Shown: positions 48,512-64,000 of the stretch, piece after piece
Numbering within the stretch: the first letter of the stretch is position 1
Layout of the letters: each line of letters opens with the position of its first letter
Assembly (NCBI RefSeq): GCF_051653945.1
Contig: NZ_JBOFXD010000050.1
Location: 4,475 to 68,474 of the forward strand
Source of the DNA: Cetobacterium sp.
GTDB taxonomy: Bacteria > Fusobacteriota > Fusobacteriia > Fusobacteriales > Fusobacteriaceae
Direction of reading: 5' to 3'
DNA: 64,000 bases
Program-made: the position numbers and the translations under genes
Notes under the pieces: model-generated
Told to the model about the DNA's origin: nothing
The model's input: the letters and a program-made list of their open reading frames with translations, nothing else
The model's database searches: none

Positions 48512-48533
48512 GTTCCAAAAGTAAATATATTCA

Positions 48534-48596
48534 TTCGTATAAGTTGCAAATATGGTGCAACGTCTCTACAACTAACCGTAAATTAGTTTCTATGAA
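48534..48596 (+). ncRNA. Purine (guanine-type) riboswitch aptamer
   Basis: UCGUAUAA-GUUGCA-AAUAUGG-UGCAAC-GUCUCUAC-AACUAA-CCGUAAA-UUAGUU-U-C-UAUGAA; C at the discriminator position; upstream of guaA. Confidence 0.93.
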
Positions 48597-48677
48597 AAAG
48601 ATAAAAGGGATTAGTCTACCTTCTGTTTTTTTATAGAGTATGATTATCTCTTTTTTTATTATATTTTGGAGGTTTTT

Positions 48678-56994: not shown

Positions 56995-59900
56995 TTATGC
57001 TAAATATTCAGATAATATTACCTCTACATTACCTGTTGTTATATCTATATTTTTTTTCTTTGTTTCTCTGTAAACATCTGGAATCTCATTAAAAACATGT
57101 TCCAATATTTTATGTGGATTAGAATCACGCTTCATAACATCATTTGCTTCATTTACTATTTTTTTCAAAATATCCTTAGGAATGATTCCAGCTTCCCCTA
57201 ACTCTTTTATCTTTTTAACTTTTTTCTCCTCATCTCCCGAGAACTTTCTATAACTGTCCAGTGCTTTCACAAGTTTCAAAAACTCTGCGTCTTTTCCAGC
57301 TTTCTTTTGAGGTGTCTGGATTATATTTTTCTCTTTAGATTCGGTAAAGTAATATTTGTTGCATTTTAGAAGTTCGTAGAAATCATCTCCCATAGGAATT
57401 TTAGCCTCTTCCATCTTACATTTTATATGCTTTACTGCTTCAAAAAATGTCAGCTCTCTTGTATTTATATCCTGATCTGTGATATATACTCTTTTCAGCT
57501 CTCCATCTCTTATGAAAGATATTACACTAGGTTTTTCGATTGTAGAATCATACTTAGAACTTCTGCTCTTTTTAGGAAGCTCTTTTATCTTTACAAAAAG
57601 ATCTTCATCCCTGTCTCTTATCTCTCTTATCTCTTTCAGATATTCAAGCTCTGATTCTTCCCATTCATCCTCTACATCCAATCTCTTATTTAATTGAGAA
57701 TAAAGCAGCTCTCCAGAAAGTTCATGCCCTCCAACTACCTCATCCTCTGTAAGATATTTAAAATCATCTCCGAGAGTCTTTTGGAAAGAGTTTATCTTAC
57801 TTGTAATATTGTCTCTTAGTCCTAGATGTTCATTCGACTTTGAAGTAGGGAAGAAATTAAATACATATATCTTATCAAATTTTGTTCCTACCCTGTTAAT
57901 TCTTCCTACCCTCTGCATTATTCTTGTGGGATTCCATGGAAGATCATAGTTGATAAGTACATTTGCTCTATGAAGGTTTATTCCCTCTGCCAGTACATCT
58001 GTCGTTATCAGAATATTATATCTATCCTCTTTAGACTTTTCATAGTTGGGATCGTAATTGGCACGGATTCTATCCTTTAAAGAGATGTTTGAACTTCCAG
58101 TAAATTCTATAATTGGCTCATTTAATGCCTCTTTCAATTTTTCTTTCAGATAATTAGCTGTCTCTTGAGATTCTGTGAATATTATTTTCTTTGTACCTTT
58201 TAAGATGCTATTAGTTTTCAGTTCTTTTATAAAATAATCGAGCTTAGGATCTACAGTTATCTTTTCAATCTCTAAATAGATACTTCTTAATACTTGCAAA
58301 TCTGACTCTAAATCTCTTTTAAACTTGTCATCAAATTCCTCTACTAAAAATCTTTCAATCTCCTCTTCTTCTACTAGTCTCATCAGTTTTTCATCATTTT
58401 CATCTGCCAGTAGATCATACACATTATATTTTTTACTTATGTATATAACTCCCTCATTGTACATCTCCAAGAATTTTTCATAAGATTCTTTAAATCTCTT
58501 AACAGTATTAGAGAAGGCAAAGAAACTGCTTTCTAACCTTTTTAGTAGTAGTGCTTTCATGAATCCTTTCATATTCATCTGACCTACCAGAAGGGTTCTT
58601 GTATCTGAGTCAGGATTCTTCAAGTAAGTTAAACTTTTATATCTTGAGTAATTCAGACTTGTTATTAAAGTTAAGATATTTTCAAAGATTGCATCCATCT
58701 TCTCATCAAATGAGTAGATTATCTGTTCTGGTGTTCCCAGTTCTGGGAATACAAGTCCTTGCTTTTCCATATCATCTTTATAATATTTTTTTATCTCACT
58801 TCTAACTCTTCTTACCATAATTTTTCTTAGTACTTTGTCTCTTATAGCATTTGAGTTTTCATCAATTATTCTATCCAATTTTTCTCTACTTGCTTCTGTA
58901 TTAGCATCCTTATGGAGCTTTATCGCTTTCTTTTCTTTGGTATCTAATTTTTTGAAAAAATCCTCAATATCTGGATTATCCTCAATTACGTTAGAATTAT
59001 TTCTCTGCTGAAAAAGAGAAATCAGATTCAAAAGATCTGATGAATAGTTATTCTGAGGGGTTGCAGAAATAAGAACAACTTTTTTATCAACGCAAATCTG
59101 ATGAAGCTTAGTATAATTTGAAGTTGCTGAGTTTCTGAATCTGTGTGCCTCATCTATAAATATATGTCTAAAATAGTCATTTGGATATTCATCAATTATC
59201 TTATCCAATTTTCCCAGTGAGACTACTGTTGCGGAAACTCCAAAATCTTCAAGAACTCTTTTCCAATAATCTTGAAGCACTGGTGGACATATAACCAAAC
59301 TTCTTCCATGCTTCAGTTCTCTAGCCAATAATGCTGTTATATATGTCTTTCCTAGTCCAACTACGTCTGCAAGAAATACTCCATTATATTTATTAAGAAT
59401 TTTTTTTGCCTGATTAACTGCATCTATCTGATACTGGAACTTTGTAAATCCATCTGGAAGAAACTCCCCTTTAAACTCCCTCATATCAGCATTAATCTCT
59501 TCATAGAAATATTCATAGAGGAATTTCAGATATAGTTCATATGGAGTTATCTCATCATTTATCCAAGTTTTTTGAGTTATAGTCTCTATATATTCCTTTG
59601 AGATCTCAACTCCCTCTTTCCATAGCTCTTCAAACTTTTCCAGAGCATACTCAACATCTCTCCTATCCTTTAACTCTACATTGAATTCCAGATTACCCTT
59701 TAATCCGCTATAAGAGAAATTACTTGATCCCGTTACGACTTTTCCAAAATCCTCAGACTTCTCCAGATCTTTTCTCATTATATATACTTTCGCATGGATC
59801 TTATCTCTCGGATAAACCCTTACTTCTAACTTTCCATTTTGAATCAACTCTATGAATTTTTTGATTCCTTCCTCTACTTTTAAGGAATCCTCTGAGTTGT

Positions 59901-60198
59901 TCATCTCATCTATTACTTTATCAGTAGTTATATTCTTTACATCTTTATTTGATAGAACGATATTATCTCCACCCTGTGCTAGTGAATACATACTGGCAAT
60001 TTTCTTATCTACATTTATCCCCACTAAAATTCTTATTTTTTCTGTTTTTTCTAAAGCTTGATAGACCTCATAAAAACCAGATGCCCTAAAATATCCTACT
60101 AAGACATCTAAGTATTTAGTATTGTTTATCAAAATCTTAGAAAATCTTTCAGCCAATGATTTTCCCTGTTCATTGGTAAAAAATGTTAAATCATCCAT
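56995..60198 (-). CDS. SNF2-family helicase with N-terminal PLD-like nuclease domain
   Basis: HAKVYI...TGSSNF (PLD); LADVVGLGKT, DEAH, SATP, EGINLH and QRVGRINR (SF2). Confidence 0.9.
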   Translation of the reverse strand: MDDLTFFTNEQGKSLAERFSKILINNTKYLDVLVGYFRASGFYEVYQALEKTEKIRILVGINVDKKIASMYSLAQGGDNIVLSNKDVKNITTDKVIDEMNNSEDSLKVEEGIKKFIELIQNGKLEVRVYPRDKIHAKVYIMRKDLEKSEDFGKVVTGSSNFSYSGLKGNLEFNVELKDRRDVEYALEKFEELWKEGVEISKEYIETITQKTWINDEITPYELYLKFLYEYFYEEINADMREFKGEFLPDGFTKFQYQIDAVNQAKKILNKYNGVFLADVVGLGKTYITALLARELKHGRSLVICPPVLQDYWKRVLEDFGVSATVVSLGKLDKIIDEYPNDYFRHIFIDEAHRFRNSATSNYTKLHQICVDKKVVLISATPQNNYSSDLLNLISLFQQRNNSNVIEDNPDIEDFFKKLDTKEKKAIKLHKDANTEASREKLDRIIDENSNAIRDKVLRKIMVRRVRSEIKKYYKDDMEKQGLVFPELGTPEQIIYSFDEKMDAIFENILTLITSLNYSRYKSLTYLKNPDSDTRTLLVGQMNMKGFMKALLLKRLESSFFAFSNTVKRFKESYEKFLEMYNEGVIYISKKYNVYDLLADENDEKLMRLVEEEEIERFLVEEFDDKFKRDLESDLQVLRSIYLEIEKITVDPKLDYFIKELKTNSILKGTKKIIFTESQETANYLKEKLKEALNEPIIEFTGSSNISLKDRIRANYDPNYEKSKEDRYNILITTDVLAEGINLHRANVLINYDLPWNPTRIMQRVGRINRVGTKFDKIYVFNFFPTSKSNEHLGLRDNITSKINSFQKTLGDDFKYLTEDEVVGGHELSGELLYSQLNKRLDVEDEWEESELEYLKEIREIRDRDEDLFVKIKELPKKSRSSKYDSTIEKPSVISFIRDGELKRVYITDQDINTRELTFFEAVKHIKCKMEEAKIPMGDDFYELLKCNKYYFTESKEKNIIQTPQKKAGKDAEFLKLVKALDSYRKFSGDEEKKVKKIKELGEAGIIPKDILKKIVNEANDVMKRDSNPHKILEHVFNEIPDVYRETKKKNIDITTGNVEVILSEYLA

Positions 60199-60290
60199 TT
60201 TGTCCCCCTATTTTATTAGTTTTTCTTATGAAAATTATATCACTTTTTTTCGTCACTTGCTATGAGATAATGTTAAAAGCTAAACAAACA

Positions 60291-60332
60291 AAAAGAGTAG
60301 AATATTCTTGACTTCAGAATACTCTACTCTTT
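60291..60332 (-). terminator. Terminator between the Abi operon and the helicase operon
   Basis: AAAGAGTAGAATATTCT...AGAATACTCTACTCTTT. Confidence 0.7.
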
Positions 60333-60364
60333 CTCAATCCTATTTAATTTTAAAAATAGATTTC

Positions 60365-61369
60365 TTAATTTTTGATTTTATCATTCTCTTCATCTATAGT
60401 TTTTTTTCTGGACTCGATATATCTTTTAATTTCTTCACCTAACTCTCGCTTTTCCTGTTCAAGTATTTTTTCAATTTCTTCAATTTTTTCTAAACTATTT
60501 ATTACATCTTGAATAAATTTAGGTGTTGTTTTATAAGCTATTTTATTTGAAATTTCATTTTTTCTCTCTCCTAATTCAGATAATTTAATAGAGATATTAT
60601 TTTTTTCAAAATTTGATTTATTTCTTTCTTTAATATATTCTTCTCTTTGACTAATTGATAAAAATTCGTTATCTGTTTTTATTAAACTATCTAAAATTCC
60701 TATCTGTTTATCATAGGAATAAAATAACTGTAAATAAGTATTTTCTTCCAATATAATACTCTCATATTTTTTCAGTTCTGGAATATATATTTGATATAAA
60801 TTCAAACAATTAATAAGCTCTGATAAATATTTATCACAGTAATCTTTACAAAAATTATGCAGTTTTTGTATATCTTTGTAAAAATTATTTGAAAGATAAA
60901 GTTCTAATCCTAAAGTATTCATTTTTTTATGAATATTAAATAATATTTTTTTATTTTCAATGATTATTTCTTGAGTATTTTCAATATTTTTGATGTCAAT
61001 TTTTTGAAAATTAATATTTTCATATACTATTCTAGTTGTATGAAAGTCGGCTGCATCCATGATTTCTGCAAGTTTTTTTATATCTAAATCTAACTCAACT
61101 TTCATATCCTGAATTTTTTGTTTATTGGTTTCATATTTTCTGTTGCTCCAGTAAATCAAAAACGATCCTAAAATACCTAAAAATATTCCTAAAAATTCTA
61201 ACCACTTTCCATTATCTAAGTCTTTCGCAAATAAAAACGGATAACTCTCGTATAATTCATTGGCTCCAATCAAACCAAAGTTTATGATTATTAATACTCC
61301 TGATACTCCTAACAGGATTTTTCCAATTTCTTTTATTGTCTTTTTATGAGATTTTTTCATTAATTCCAC
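60365..61369 (-). CDS. Hypothetical protein with two N-terminal TM helices and a long coiled coil
   Basis: Very AT-rich; hydrophobic segments at about aa 17-35 and 55-75; 12 bp downstream of abiF. Confidence 0.78.
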   Translation of the reverse strand: MELMKKSHKKTIKEIGKILLGVSGVLIIINFGLIGANELYESYPFLFAKDLDNGKWLEFLGIFLGILGSFLIYWSNRKYETNKQKIQDMKVELDLDIKKLAEIMDAADFHTTRIVYENINFQKIDIKNIENTQEIIIENKKILFNIHKKMNTLGLELYLSNNFYKDIQKLHNFCKDYCDKYLSELINCLNLYQIYIPELKKYESIILEENTYLQLFYSYDKQIGILDSLIKTDNEFLSISQREEYIKERNKSNFEKNNISIKLSELGERKNEISNKIAYKTTPKFIQDVINSLEKIEEIEKILEQEKRELGEEIKRYIESRKKTIDEENDKIKN

Positions 61370-61381
61370 CTTTTTAGAATC

Positions 61382-62314
61382 TTATAAATTTTCCATTTTA
61401 TGCCAGTTTATTGGAAATCCCATCGCTTCCAAAATTTGATTTATCTCAATAACTCTCAAATTTTTTTCTAGTTCTTCACAACTTTTTATCAAAGAGGATG
61501 TAAGAATACTATACTCTGCTTTCGTCAAAAAGATCCTAAGTCCTTGATATACTCCAAATAAGTTTTGTCTACTCTTAGAATTAATAAATTCATTAGAGGA
61601 GATTGTAACTTTTGTTTTTAAATTATAAGTTCTTTCATTATGGGCACACACATTTCTAAAATTCCCAGCTACTTTTAAAAATGATTCCATAAATTCTTTT
61701 GAGACCCTAATTTCTGAGCCATACTCTTTCTCATAGATAGCTTTCACAGAGTTTATAACTCTATCTTTTACAGTGTTCTTTATTACTGTAAAAAATATAC
61801 TCATTTCTCCAAATGTTAAAAAATGAATTAAAACCCATAGAGGAATATTATTTTTCTCCTTATAGTGCTTCAAAACTTCAATTTTATAATCTTTTAATAA
61901 ATTTTTCATTCTTTTTACAATTATATGAATATTATCCAAATTATATGAATTCAAATAGTAGCAATCATAATCTAAATATCTATTAACAACTCTTTCATGC
62001 TTATTATTAGTATTTATTTCAGAAAAATGATAAGAAATCAAAGTTTTCATTACCCTCTCAAACTCGGTTATAGAGTTAAAAAATGCCATTCTTAAGCTTT
62101 TATCAAATTCAAAGAGACTTATAATTTCCCTTATGTGAACTCCAACTTTATACTTATCGCTTCCTTTCTCTTGCAAAAAAGGGGTTTTATAAAAGTTGAT
62201 TACTGAATAATAATTATTTCTCATGAGATAAAATTTAGTATAATCATCACAAGTGATTCCTCTTTTAGTTAAAATATCTATCTGTTTCTCAAAATCTGAA
62301 AATGGTTTATCCAA
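61382..62314 (-). CDS. Abi family (AbiD/AbiF, Abi_2) HEPN ribonuclease
   Basis: KPFSDFEKQIDIL..RG, NYYSV, FDKSLR, PLWV....TFG and HEPN RNVCAH; TTG start with GGGAGG SD. Confidence 0.9.
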   Translation of the reverse strand: MDKPFSDFEKQIDILTKRGITCDDYTKFYLMRNNYYSVINFYKTPFLQEKGSDKYKVGVHIREIISLFEFDKSLRMAFFNSITEFERVMKTLISYHFSEINTNNKHERVVNRYLDYDCYYLNSYNLDNIHIIVKRMKNLLKDYKIEVLKHYKEKNNIPLWVLIHFLTFGEMSIFFTVIKNTVKDRVINSVKAIYEKEYGSEIRVSKEFMESFLKVAGNFRNVCAHNERTYNLKTKVTISSNEFINSKSRQNLFGVYQGLRIFLTKAEYSILTSSLIKSCEELEKNLRVIEINQILEAMGFPINWHKMENL

Positions 62315-62333
62315 AATTTCCTCCCAGTAATAT

Positions 62334-62413
62334 AAAAAGCCCCCTTTGCAAAAAGGAGGCAGTCTATAGTCTATGCCCGTATTTTTTCAAATAACTCGCA
62401 TAGCACGATCAGT
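62334..62413 (-). ncRNA. Candidate abiF-type leader/antitoxin RNA ending in an intrinsic terminator
   Basis: CUAUGC/GCAUAG stem with inner UAUUU/AAAUA; GCCUCCUUU-UUGC-AAAGGGGGC plus U5; between the promoter and abiF. Confidence 0.65.
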
Positions 62414-62419
62414 TATAAA

Positions 62420-62448
62420 ATAATACCTTTTTTTTACGTTTTTGTCAA
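62420..62448 (-). promoter_or_regulatory. sigma70 promoter for leader RNA/abiF
   Basis: TTGACA (62448-62443), 17 bp, TATTAT (62425-62420). Confidence 0.75.
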
Positions 62449-62546
62449 TTGTTTATTTGAATTTGAACCCATTATAGCATATTTCATTTTTTTTCACAGC
62501 ATTTTTCGTAATTTTTCTGATATTTTTTTATATTCAACAGAAAACA

Positions 62547-62575
62547 TTGAAATTTCTATGAAAATTTTATATAAT
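62547..62575 (+). promoter_or_regulatory. sigma70 promoter for the large structured RNA
   Basis: TTGAAA (62547-62552), 17 bp, TATAAT (62570-62575). Confidence 0.7.
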
Positions 62576-62580
62576 ATTAC

Positions 62581-62812
62581 TGCAAGAGATTGGAAGGAAA
62601 TGTCTGCGGACACATAATTAATCGGACGATTTTTGTGTAACTTAGTTAATCGCCTTCGACAAGATCTTATTAAATAATCTAAGAGGCAAGTTGACGTTTG
62701 AACTTACTAAAATAAATTAGTAAGTCGTAAAATTTTAAGAGAATTTTTTACTTTCTCTCCTTTTTTATATTCAAAATACATTTTTAATTTTAAAATTTTT
62801 ACTTCTCTTGTA
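62581..62812 (+). ncRNA. Candidate large structured ncRNA (~230 nt), possibly ARRPOF-like
   Basis: 9-bp closing stem TGCAAGAGA/TCTCTTGTA encloses several hairpins; no ORF; next to mob genes. Confidence 0.6.
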
Positions 62813-62978
62813 AAACTCATTAAAACCACGTTTTTAAAGCTTTTATATTTTCTTCGAGATATTTTATATGTCTTAAAATCTATTTTAAAAGCTCAATCTT
62901 TAGAACCACATCTTTGTAAAAATAAAATTTTATTATCCCTATCCCACCAGTATTTTTCATCTCCAATCAAAACTCTTT

Positions 62979-63311
62979 TTATAATGCCAATATCCTCTTT
63001 GATCCCCCTGTACTGAAAAAATATGCTTCTATAAGAAAAATGATTCCACTAAAAATATTCAGAGAGAAAATTCCTATGAAATATCTGCTTATCTTTCCTT
63101 TAAAATCTTGTATGAGATAATCTGAATTTTTCTCAAACTCTGCAACATTTTCTCTGAAACTCACTTTTATAAGCTCTTGGCTATTCTGAGTTTTAGAGAT
63201 CACGTTCATTACTTCCTGATTTTCTCTTTTTAAATTCTCGCTGTTGCTTTTCCAATTCTTCTCGTTTTCTTTCTTCAAATCTTCTATGAGCGAGGGTAGG
63301 ATTTTGGACAA
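62979..63311 (-). CDS. Mob-region coiled-coil protein with C-terminal hydrophobic segment (possibly degenerate)
   Basis: GAGG SD; lies directly after the relaxase remnant. Confidence 0.5.
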   Translation of the reverse strand: MSKILPSLIEDLKKENEKNWKSNSENLKRENQEVMNVISKTQNSQELIKVSFRENVAEFEKNSDYLIQDFKGKISRYFIGIFSLNIFSGIIFLIEAYFFSTGGSKRILAL

Positions 63312-64000
63312 TTCTGTAACCTCTCTCTGTTAGCTCCGCCTGATTCTCTATAGATCTCCTCTGCAATTGAATTAGAATTTCCTTCTCTACCTCTTCTCTT
63401 TTCAAACTCTCTAGCAAACTCTGCAATGTCTTTATATTCAATTTCCTCTAGCTTCTCTAGATACTCCTGTTCTGTTCCCTCTCTTGCTATTTTCCACCCC
63501 CTCCTTGCTAAGAATATCTTGGTTAAATGTCTTTTGGAGAGTAGAGAGTCTAAACTTATCCTTATTCCCCACAAGTATCTTTTTATACACTATAAAGGTT
63601 ATATTTTTTCTCTGCTCCTCCCAATCAGTTCTATACCCTTTCCTCTATATATTCTTCAGAACCTCTTCTCTGTTTTTGCTCTCCTGTGAAGTCTTGATAA
63701 TTACCTTTACCAGATTTAAACTGTCACTCTCTTTGGTAATTCCATTTTTGATTGTCACATACTTATTTTTATCCCAAGTAATTATCTTCCCTTTCTCTCT
63801 ATTTTTTGTGGAATCTCCAATCCATGAGTTAAGCAGATTTCATGATATGCTCTCGGTCTGTATGAGTGGCTATAAATACCTCATGTCCTAGAAAAGCTTT
63901 CTCACAGAATTCTACTCCAATTTCCAGTGCCTTTTCTCTATCTACCTCTCCAGCTTTAAAACTTTGAATTATATGTTTGTATTCTCTCCTTCTCCTCTTT
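63193..64000 (-). pseudogene. MOBP-type relaxase remnant (5' end outside the window)
   Basis: REYKHIIQSFKAGEVDREKALEIGVEF..GHEVFIATHTDREHI; the HxH motif is cut by an apparent deletion; several frameshifted fragments follow. Confidence 0.8.

Follow-up and report, generated by a model that had tools for sequence, protein, structure and literature searches.

The abiF gene of this Cetobacterium sp. raises the question of whether the DNA just ahead of it encodes an RNA that restrains the AbiF toxin and, if so, what class of RNA that is. The locus lies within the 64,000-nt stretch of DNA that was analysed (the window), and all features described below are on its minus strand. A preliminary description had read it as a type III toxin-antitoxin-like module, in which a promoter, a structured leader RNA and a terminator precede an intact Abi_2 gene. 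It had proposed that an abundant short RNA restrains the RNase, which could give abortive infection and explain why a decayed mobile element is retained.

The gene itself (61382..62314) begins with a TTG codon at 62314 and encodes a 310-aa protein of the Abi_2/HEPN type. The protein matched Pfam Abi_2 (PF07751) at 1.4e-33, with 117.2 bits against a gathering cut-off of 25.6, and the match extended over residues 29-231, which correspond to profile positions 2-184 of 184. PADLOC returned an AbiD match at 5.4e-44. In a sequence search of the PDB, the sole significant match was 8vz6_A (PbAbiF; E = 4e-12, residues 3-237), and the RNVCAH motif at residues 220-225 aligned on RNSCCH of that protein, the HEPN Rx4H motif being intact. 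R220, N221 and H225 were invariant across 21 homologues. An AlphaFold2 model of the protein (pLDDT 88.7, pTM 0.86) was compared with the PDB using Foldseek, and the top match was again 8vz6_A (E = 1e-9, TM 0.74/0.77), the next having E = 0.47. By sequence and predicted fold, the 310-aa protein is a true AbiF, an intact HEPN member of the AbiF/AbiD family.

A sequence read and a promoter scan located a -35 box, TTGACA (62443..62448), and a -10 box, TATTAT (62420..62425), with a 17-nt spacer, exactly as had been claimed. This promoter matched 11 of 12 consensus positions and had the joint top score of the promoter-like sites between 60000 and 64000; its TTGACA is kept in the two Fusobacteriaceae relatives L150 and L151 and in most Leptotrichiaceae loci. 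Transcription is predicted to start at about 62413, and a leader or small RNA of about 80 nt is predicted from there to the end of the U-run (62334..62413), both ends being placed from the promoter and terminator only. The leader was described as GC-richer, and its G+C content was indeed 41%, compared with 29% in the window as a whole and 26% in the ORF. Folding of a 106-nt leader sequence gave -27.6 kcal/mol (z = -3.1), and none of 200 shuffled sequences was as stable. Covariation and folding both identified a 6-bp outer stem formed by CUAUGC (5' arm, 62398..62403) and GCAUAG (3' arm, 62371..62376), within which lie a GA/GG internal loop and then an A/U inner stem with one bulged U. Of the bulged hairpin proposed earlier, the outer stem thus stands as drawn, whereas the inner UUAUUU/AAAAUA helix pairs only with one U bulged out.

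The hairpin is followed by an intrinsic terminator (62334..62360; -13.2 kcal/mol), which has a 9-bp G+C-rich stem with a UUGC loop (62360-62339) and a U5 run (62338-62334) and agrees with the terminator first noted. Three terminator-like sites, the leader terminator among them, were present within 4 kb, with 0.7 expected. A terminator occurs at the same place in every related locus, with a different stem sequence. A Shine-Dalgarno sequence, GGGAGG (62320..62325), lies 5 nt ahead of the TTG start; it was verified together with the start codon and the intact 310-aa reading frame carrying RNVCAH. It is the sole content of the 24 nt between the U-run and the start codon (62315-62338), and at the sequence level abiF has no promoter of its own. 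This arrangement is not due to chance, because the whole layout is kept in relatives with compensatory base changes.

The conserved RNA motif (62362..62414) consists of a 5' single strand, GAUCGUG, the hairpin, and a 3' single strand, ACUAUAGAC, and was captured in a covariance model designated R1. On the leader, R1 scored 46.9 bits (E = 3.5e-6), and the model matched nothing else in the window or the rest of the 2.73-Mb genome. Loci L150-L152 were excluded from model building and still scored 52-53 bits. The outer stem was common to 29 distinct leaders, with 99.4% of cells paired, although the related loci include many near-identical copies from metagenomes and the independent leader lineages number only about eight. 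Compensatory changes were found in four of the six outer-stem pairs, and double-change cells numbered 27 compared with 5.9 in shuffles, none of 500 shuffles reaching 27. Slid controls for the outer stem were all paired in 55% of cells or less, and RNAalifold recovered the same stem independently. The outer stem reads CUGUAC/GUACAG in L150 and CUAUAC/GUAUAG in L151; in the closest relatives two stem pairs are altered on both sides, and the loops and flanks are identical. Inner stems were present in nearly all of 27 folded leaders, with differing sequences, and the single-stranded flanks of the outer stem, GAUCGU on the 5' side and AGACU on the 3' side, were conserved. The only repeat in the leader is a 7-nt duplication of AUAGACU, which is missing from L150 and L151. 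An additional helix, pairing GAUCGU with ACUGUA (columns 9-11 and 51-53 of the alignment), was considered and rejected, with only 54% of cells paired. The comparison supports the conclusion that selection maintains the structure of the leader RNA and that the RNA is passed on together with abiF.

Related loci were obtained by alignment-based searches; a single-protein search of genome contigs gave none. The leader RNA was common to L150 and L151, whose AbiF proteins are 82-85% identical to the one studied here, and to some 60 loci from Leptotrichiaceae and metagenomes. The homology with L150 and L151 extends from 62454 and 62458 to 61391 and 61398, respectively, its limits coinciding with the -35 box and the abiF end, and the flanks are unrelated. 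The extent of this homology indicates that the RNA and the toxin move as one unit of about 1.07 kb, and the unrelated flanks of these two closest relatives indicate that the module is not tied to the decayed mobile element found here. Among 80 metagenome loci, 76 carried the motif upstream of abiF, and the other four include two cut contigs and one distant homologue. In genomes of the order, every member of this abiF clade that was identified has the RNA. Within its own family, 95 genomes (G000 and 94 others) contained no copy besides that in the window. In Leptotrichiaceae (for example L002, L005, L006, L007 and L003), the same RNA class (38-58 bits with R1) and the same layout accompany AbiF proteins 39-46% identical to this one, although the bacterial family is different; those loci often have the order leader-fic-leader-abiF-relB-yafQ, whereas the copy in the window is solitary. 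Yet other leaders precede a second Abi_2 gene of the Cetobacterium genome and the more distant homologues. Viral contigs gave 70 pattern matches for the GAUCGU subtype, the only one searched, and none passed R1 at E<=0.1, as expected of chance matches. Of 187 genomes of the order, 14 had Cas13a-type repeats, and the Cetobacterium genome had none. Some leaders have stretches of up to 10 nt in common with the 5' part of these repeats (GAUAUAGAC...); permuted repeats did equally well in 9% of trials, and kinship was rejected as not significant.

Downstream of abiF lies a 331-aa ORFan (60365..61360) with a Shine-Dalgarno sequence, AAGGTGG, and an ATG codon 21 nt past the abiF stop; it is probably co-transcribed with abiF. 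A terminator with a 19-bp stem and a T-run (60290..60334) closes the abiF-ORFan transcription unit. The ORFan matched no Pfam, PADLOC or NCBIfam family, and the 187 genomes of the order gave only a marginal match (E = 3e-4). It was rejected as a third component of the module, since no homologue lies beside any related abiF and the homology to L150 and L151 stops at the abiF stop codon, placing it outside the conserved module.

Searching for the RNA independently of the gene yielded 25 matches, of which about 12 lie ahead of an intact abiF and about six ahead of a truncated or frameshifted one; the other seven have no abiF behind them. The abiF of this clade is almost never found without the RNA, yet the RNA persists beside decayed or replaced abiF genes, and in four or five genomes it is present with its cognate abiF absent. 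This asymmetry, in which the toxin is lost and the antidote kept, is expected of a toxin-antitoxin pair. Leptotrichiaceae have this promoter-RNA-terminator cassette ahead of other genes as well, namely Fic genes (L130, L136, L137, L140, L052, L056 and L087), a DUF3644/REase-like gene (L126) and a DUF4041 gene (L146). For fic the leader is facultative, being found in seven of 19 distinct upstream regions (one of the seven decayed), whereas for abiF it is near-obligate. In the fic-linked copies homology breaks just past the terminator.

The closest parallel in arrangement is AbiF(Cd)-RCd22 of the C. difficile prophage phi027 and phage phiC2. That locus consists of a SigA-type promoter, a structured RNA of about 100 nt, a Rho-independent terminator, a ribosome-binding site and a promoterless Abi_2 gene, and RCd22 acts in trans as well as in cis (Saunier et al. 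2025, bioRxiv 10.1101/2025.04.15.648962). The parts of the Cetobacterium locus occur in the same order, in keeping with the type III toxin-antitoxin-like layout proposed at the outset. At the protein level the two AbiFs share 28% identity over 240 aa, and their R..H motifs align. RCd22 comprises two hairpin copies of the RF03085 family, whereas the leader here is one hairpin of another class; the C. difficile pair sits in a phage lysis module and the present one in a chromosomal island; and, of the two genes, the one studied here has the TTG start. RF03085 (Weinberg et al. 2017) is likewise a hairpin RNA located 5' of abiF, and it differs from the leader in its stem, in its loops and in which nucleotides are conserved. 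In PbAbiF-AbiFr, a Prevotellaceae AbiF dimer was solved with its ncRNA (8VZ6; Zilberzwige-Tal et al. 2025, as summarised in PMC12737573 and by Saunier et al.); one ncRNA is reported to be bound per monomer, R210 and H215, the equivalents of R220 and H225, to be essential, and AbiFr to inhibit through C32 and U38 of a single-stranded bulge. The PbAbiF protein and the present AbiF are only 21% identical in the structural alignment, and the conserved unpaired bases here are stem flanks, in contrast to the inhibitory bulge of AbiFr. The antitoxins of ToxIN, CptIN and TenpIN are tandem repeats that the toxin processes into pseudoknot units, whereas this leader is a single hairpin with no repeat array, and the toxin is a HEPN protein rather than one of the ToxN/Kid fold of classical type III systems. 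Those systems also have an RNA gene and terminator directly upstream of the RNase toxin gene, and they are associated with abortive infection (PMC12283969).

On balance, we favour the interpretation that the locus is a self-contained AbiF-type toxin/RNA module of about 1.07 kb, a type that has recently been grouped with the type III toxin-antitoxin systems. The analysis itself establishes the sequence elements, the conservation of the RNA structure, the linkage of RNA and gene, and the family and fold of the protein. Transcription and termination, together with binding, neutralisation, toxicity and a role in defence, are inferred from PbAbiF-AbiFr and AbiF(Cd)-RCd22. By analogy with these, the strong sigma-70-type promoter would drive synthesis of a short non-coding RNA (about 80 nt) made up of the 5' single strand GAUCGU, the covarying 6-bp outer stem, the variable inner stem, a 3' flank (A/G-C-U) and the terminator. 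Most transcripts would terminate and release free RNA, and a minority would read through and carry abiF, the translation of which the TTG start may hold low. The RNA would bind the AbiF homodimer and block the HEPN RNase centre (R220/H225), serving both as an attenuator in cis and as an antitoxin in trans. Should the supply of RNA fail, for example upon phage infection, AbiF would cut RNA and the infection would be aborted. The leader is unlike RF03085 in sequence and in the design of its internal loop, and binding in the manner of PbAbiF or RCd22 is therefore an extrapolation.

The leader had implicitly been equated with the known abiF RNA motif, and this identification failed when the Rfam model was applied. 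RF03085 gave no match at E<=10 in a 171-nt scan of the leader (62300-62470), in the surrounding 4 kb (60000-64000) or in the whole genome, and none at E<=5 in 12 related loci. As a positive control, the same model (gathering score 37 bits) found its targets in phage phiC2, with scores of 37.6 and 19.5 bits. The consensus features of RF03085, namely a 6-bp CCCGCC stem, an A bulge, AGC/GCU and a CAAAUC 3' internal loop, were all absent from the leader, and in the reverse test R1 did not match RCd22 of phiC2. Weak matches to other Rfam families (PyrG_leader and others, E 0.35-10) merely reflect the terminator and were rejected. The leader does share with RF03085 its position relative to abiF and a hairpin of similar size ahead of a terminator, but in view of these searches we regard it as extremely improbable that it is a divergent member of that family. 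The leader is a distinct, clade-specific conserved RNA outside the RNA-family catalogue.

A simpler role for this RNA, as a throttle acting only in cis with no antitoxin activity in trans, is possible but unlikely. A strong promoter coupled to an efficient terminator, perhaps with a hairpin that binds a protein or RNase, would keep expression of a dangerous gene low. The identical cassettes ahead of Fic, DUF3644+REase and DUF4041 genes fit such a generic cis-regulatory role equally well, and the RNAs that lack a cognate abiF, as well as the absence from the leader of the RF03085 features mutated or contacted in studied systems, point the same way. A throttle alone accounts less readily for a leader that is facultative for fic and near-obligate for abiF. 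Moreover, a terminator would suffice for it, yet a second hairpin with conserved flanks has been kept across 40% protein identity, and the leader of the homologous C. difficile system performs both jobs. Much less probable still is that the inverted repeat acts as DNA, either as a repressor operator or as a recombination or cassette junction. The element lies between promoter and terminator and would be transcribed whenever the promoter fires. Compensatory changes would preserve a DNA palindrome as well, and the cassette does mark an exchange point of downstream genes, as in the fic-linked copies; however, G-U pairs in the outer stem (three cells) would become C-A mismatches in the complementary strand, and the inner stems use G-U pairs too. 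Between the arms, moreover, lie 20-25 nt that include a second stem of variable sequence, and the conserved flanks are asymmetric (GAUCGU versus RCU) and non-palindromic. Because the cassette is duplicated before Fic and defence-type genes and outlives decayed abiF, the promoter-RNA-terminator unit may alternatively be a portable module, acting as an orphan antitoxin against incoming AbiF (anti-addiction) or as a common RNA gate on several unrelated toxic effectors; whichever the role, AbiF would be bound via the single-stranded flanks of the stem rather than a bulge as in AbiFr. We consider this proposal speculative and doubtful.

The toxin/RNA module that we favour leaves the known mechanism unchanged. 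AbiF toxins held by cis-encoded RNAs were reportedly recognised in 2025 as toxin-antitoxin systems and likely ancestors of Cas13. To our knowledge, RF03085 is the single catalogued class of AbiF-associated RNA, and a literature survey, which did not extend to the original AbiF ncRNA report (Cell, 2025), found no paper tying abiF of Fusobacterium or Leptotrichia to an RNA. What is new here is that in Fusobacteriales the same protein family is paired with a structurally different RNA that is invisible to the catalogue model. Model R1 detects both the cassettes and the orphan RNAs at loci where annotation gives only 'Abi family protein'. By analogy with the studied systems, the hairpin RNA probably keeps an AbiF-type RNA-cutting toxin in check, the two forming a compact phage-defence cassette. 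These loci provide more natural AbiF-RNA pairs with which to study how recognition of RNA partners arose in HEPN RNases, a question of particular interest in an order where Cas13a is common.

On the minus strand, a -35 box (TTGACA, 62448-62443) is followed, after a 17-nt spacer, by a -10 box (TATTAT, 62425-62420). With 11 of the 12 consensus positions matched, this predicted promoter shares the top score for promoter-like sites in 60000-64000. The leader contains a hairpin with outer arms CUAUGC and GCAUAG (62403-62398 and 62376-62371, minus strand) and a terminator with a 9-bp G+C-rich stem (62360-62339, minus strand) and U5, one of three terminator-like sites in 4 kb (0.7 in shuffled sequence). 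GGGAGG lies 5 nt from a TTG start at 62314, and the abiF ORF runs uninterrupted for 310 codons on the same strand to 61382. TTG and GTG starts recur in the clade. The leader (80 nt, predicted start to U-run) has a G+C content of 41%, compared to 29% for the window and 26% for the ORF; folded as a 106-nt segment, it reaches -27.6 kcal/mol (z = -3.1). The promoter, hairpin leader, terminator, SD and intact abiF proposed in the preliminary description were all found where it had placed them.

The abiF product covers the full Pfam Abi_2 profile (1.4e-33) and matches PADLOC AbiD (5.4e-44); no NCBIfam model matched. The sole real match among all PDB sequences was 8vz6_A, 'Abi family protein' (E = 4e-12, residues 3-237), in which RNSCCH aligned with the RNVCAH of the abiF product. 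According to published summaries of Zilberzwige-Tal et al. 2025 (PMC12737573; Saunier et al. 2025), 8VZ6 shows the PbAbiF dimer bound to its ncRNA, as solved by cryo-EM, and R210 and H215 of PbAbiF are reported to be essential. For an AlphaFold2 model generated from 21 homologues (pLDDT 88.7), the structural search gave one significant match, again 8vz6_A (TM 0.74/0.77, E = 1e-9); next in rank came a Cas13d chain (E = 0.47). The abiF product shares 28% identity with the C. difficile/phiC2 AbiF. The gene encodes an intact AbiF-family HEPN protein, an ordinary though divergent member of that family.

The preliminary description had linked the leader to the known abiF RNA motif, described in 2017 (RF03085, Rfam 15), and covariance searches with this model did not bear out the link. 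No match was obtained at E<=10 on a 171-nt leader scan, on a 4-kb scan around the leader or across the whole 2.73-Mb genome, and 12 related loci gave none at E<=5. The positive control, the intergenic region 5' of phiC2 abiF, returned the two published hairpins of the C. difficile RNA RCd22 at 37.6 and 19.5 bits. The RF03085 consensus (CCCGCC stem, A bulge, AGC/GCU, CAAAUC internal loop) has nothing in common with the leader hairpin here.

Among 187 genomes of the order searched at the protein level, the window's genus (22 species) had no close AbiF homologue, and Leptotrichiaceae had homologues of 39-46% identity, all with an upstream design identical in kind. Metagenome contigs supplied 80 further loci, and 5.8 billion proteins yielded two closer relatives (85% and 82% identity), one from a 'Fusobacteriaceae bacterium'. 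In an alignment of 29 distinct leaders, which represent about eight independent lineages and otherwise close copies, the outer 6-bp stem was paired in 99.4% of cells, with two-sided changes in four of its six pairs. Double-change cells numbered 27, versus 5.9 +/- 2.0 in shuffles (0 of 500 as high), and slid controls were all <=55% paired. RNAalifold predicted exactly the same stem. Unpaired conserved bases adjoin it, 5' GAUCGU (GGAAUG in one subclade) and 3' R-C-Y; a helix between these two flanks was considered and found unsupported (54% paired). Inside the outer stem, almost all of 27 folded leaders have an internal loop plus another stem (3-7 bp), whose sequence varies among subclades. The cleanest evidence for a conserved RNA structure comes from the two closest relatives (L150 and L151), in which CUAUGC/GCAUAG is replaced by CUGUAC/GUACAG and CUAUAC/GUAUAG while loops and flanks are unchanged. 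As judged from these alignments, the leader is a conserved RNA despite its failure to match RF03085.

A covariance model of the conserved motif, R1, matched once in the window's genome, at the abiF leader (46.9 bits), with no other match in the 64-kb window and none in leaders of more distant Abi_2 clades or in phiC2. Three loci outside the R1 seed (L150-L152) were recovered at 52-53 bits. The motif lay 60-120 nt 5' of abiF in 76 of the 80 metagenome loci; in the remaining four, the contig was cut within 45 nt (two loci), the homologue was only 25% identical (one) or the 5' half of the leader had been replaced (one). In blastn comparisons with the two close relatives, homology extended from 62454/62458 to 61391/61398, beginning a few bases ahead of the -35 box and ending in the final codons of abiF; the flanks were unrelated. 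These limits indicate that promoter, RNA, terminator and abiF form an inherited unit of ~1.07 kb, in agreement with the extent originally assigned to the module. The GAUCGU subtype was not found in viral contigs. As far as searched, the predicted RNA is confined to Leptotrichiaceae and three Fusobacteriaceae genomes.

R1 alone gave 25 matches in 20 of 151 genomes of the order: the window's own and 19 of 52 Leptotrichiaceae, with none in 94 other genomes of the window's family. About 12 matches precede an intact abiF, about six a truncated or frameshifted abiF or a 26-codon remnant, and seven something else: Fic-domain genes (four), a gene for a DUF3644 + EC042_2821 restriction-endonuclease-like protein (L126:331-1362, minus strand), a DUF4041 membrane protein gene (L146:1676-3052, plus strand), the latter two in Leptotrichiaceae genomes, or nothing. 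Many Leptotrichia loci have the order leader-fic-leader-abiF-relB-yafQ (L052, L056, L087, L110, L113, L115 and L094 from metagenomes; L131/L023 from genomes), the entire promoter-RNA-terminator cassette being duplicated 5' of fic beside a type II RelB/YafQ pair. Otherwise conserved bases are altered in some of the copies on the fic side (GAUCG to GAUUG, AGAC to AGAU), and the one in L063 is partly deleted. A leader was present in 7 of 19 distinct fic upstream regions, visibly decayed in one. From these counts, abiF almost always comes with the RNA, fic only sometimes does, and the RNA outlives decayed abiF. Such asymmetry is what a toxin-antitoxin relationship would predict, and a purely cis-regulatory reading also has room. 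One metagenome contig type (L072) carries leaders of both subtypes, GGAAUG and GAUCGU, on opposite strands ~840 nt apart (502-552, minus; 1389-1437, plus), which suggests divergently arranged cassettes.

Downstream of abiF, 21 nt past its stop, an SD-preceded 331-aa ORFan (60365-61360, minus strand) follows with no terminator before it and is probably co-transcribed. It is absent from all related abiF loci. Pfam, PADLOC and NCBIfam gave no matching family, and the 187 genomes gave no homologue beyond a marginal match (E = 3e-4). Its N-terminus is hydrophobic and the remainder long, charged, repetitive and very AT-rich. The next gene encodes a 1067-aa PLD-nuclease and SNF2-helicase protein (56995-60198, minus strand; PADLOC 'HKD+Snf2' 1.7e-47, DrmD-like), placing the module within a defence-gene cluster. 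Upstream, a MobA/VirD2 relaxase fragment (63829-63999, minus strand, continuing past the window end; Pfam Relaxase 1.9e-13) and subsequent overlapping short ORFs in three frames (62979-63590, minus strand) would fit a mobilisation gene that has decayed. Within the window, one Rfam family alone exceeded its gathering score, the purine riboswitch aptamer (RF00167, 62.3 bits, 48515-48612, plus strand).

The genome's second, distant Abi_2 gene (L149:455-1616; G000:C61:6754-7915) is organised in the same way, with an RNA that differs: TTGACA-17-TATGAT, a ~95-nt leader starting GAUCCGU, a long hairpin (ACCCCUAU...AUAGGGGU, with CCGUGAGGC in its interior), a terminal U-run, then AAGGAGG and ATG. Loops resembling this one, YNGAGGNG, are also seen in the leaders of further distant Abi_2 genes (L011, L013, L018, L025, L029, L032); neither RF03085 nor R1 matched the scanned subset. 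Cas13a-type CRISPR repeats (GAUAUAGACC/U-ACCCC...GGGGACUAAAAC; L153-L164) were found in 14 of the 187 genomes, 10 Leptotrichiaceae and four of the window's family, and not in the window's genome. Kinship between these repeats and the leader was considered and rejected: up to a 10-mer is common to the 5' part of the repeat and some leaders, and permuted repeats did equally well in 9% of trials.

The best-supported reading, which we regard as probable, is that the locus follows published AbiF logic with a new RNA. RCd22 of C. difficile is transcribed from a SigA promoter and mostly stops at its own terminator. [quoted passage not shown] 2025, bioRxiv 10.1101/2025.04.15.648962). Here the near-consensus promoter, the terminator tight against the SD and the TTG start codon suggest that the leader RNA would be plentiful and AbiF protein scarce. 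It is possible, though doubtful, that the leader acts as an attenuator only. A palindrome acting at the DNA level is very unlikely, given the G-U pairs in the stem, the asymmetric flanks and the transcribed position of the element. Least likely of all is a divergent RF03085, a reading at odds with the unsuccessful model searches.

Summaries of the 2025 work treat AbiF and its ncRNA as a toxin-antitoxin pair and a likely ancestor of Cas13. A literature search that did not extend to the primary 2025 AbiF-ncRNA paper found no paper describing the leader RNA. By comparison with catalogued families, the predicted leader RNA is a distinct class, without representation in Rfam 15. The system type is already known.
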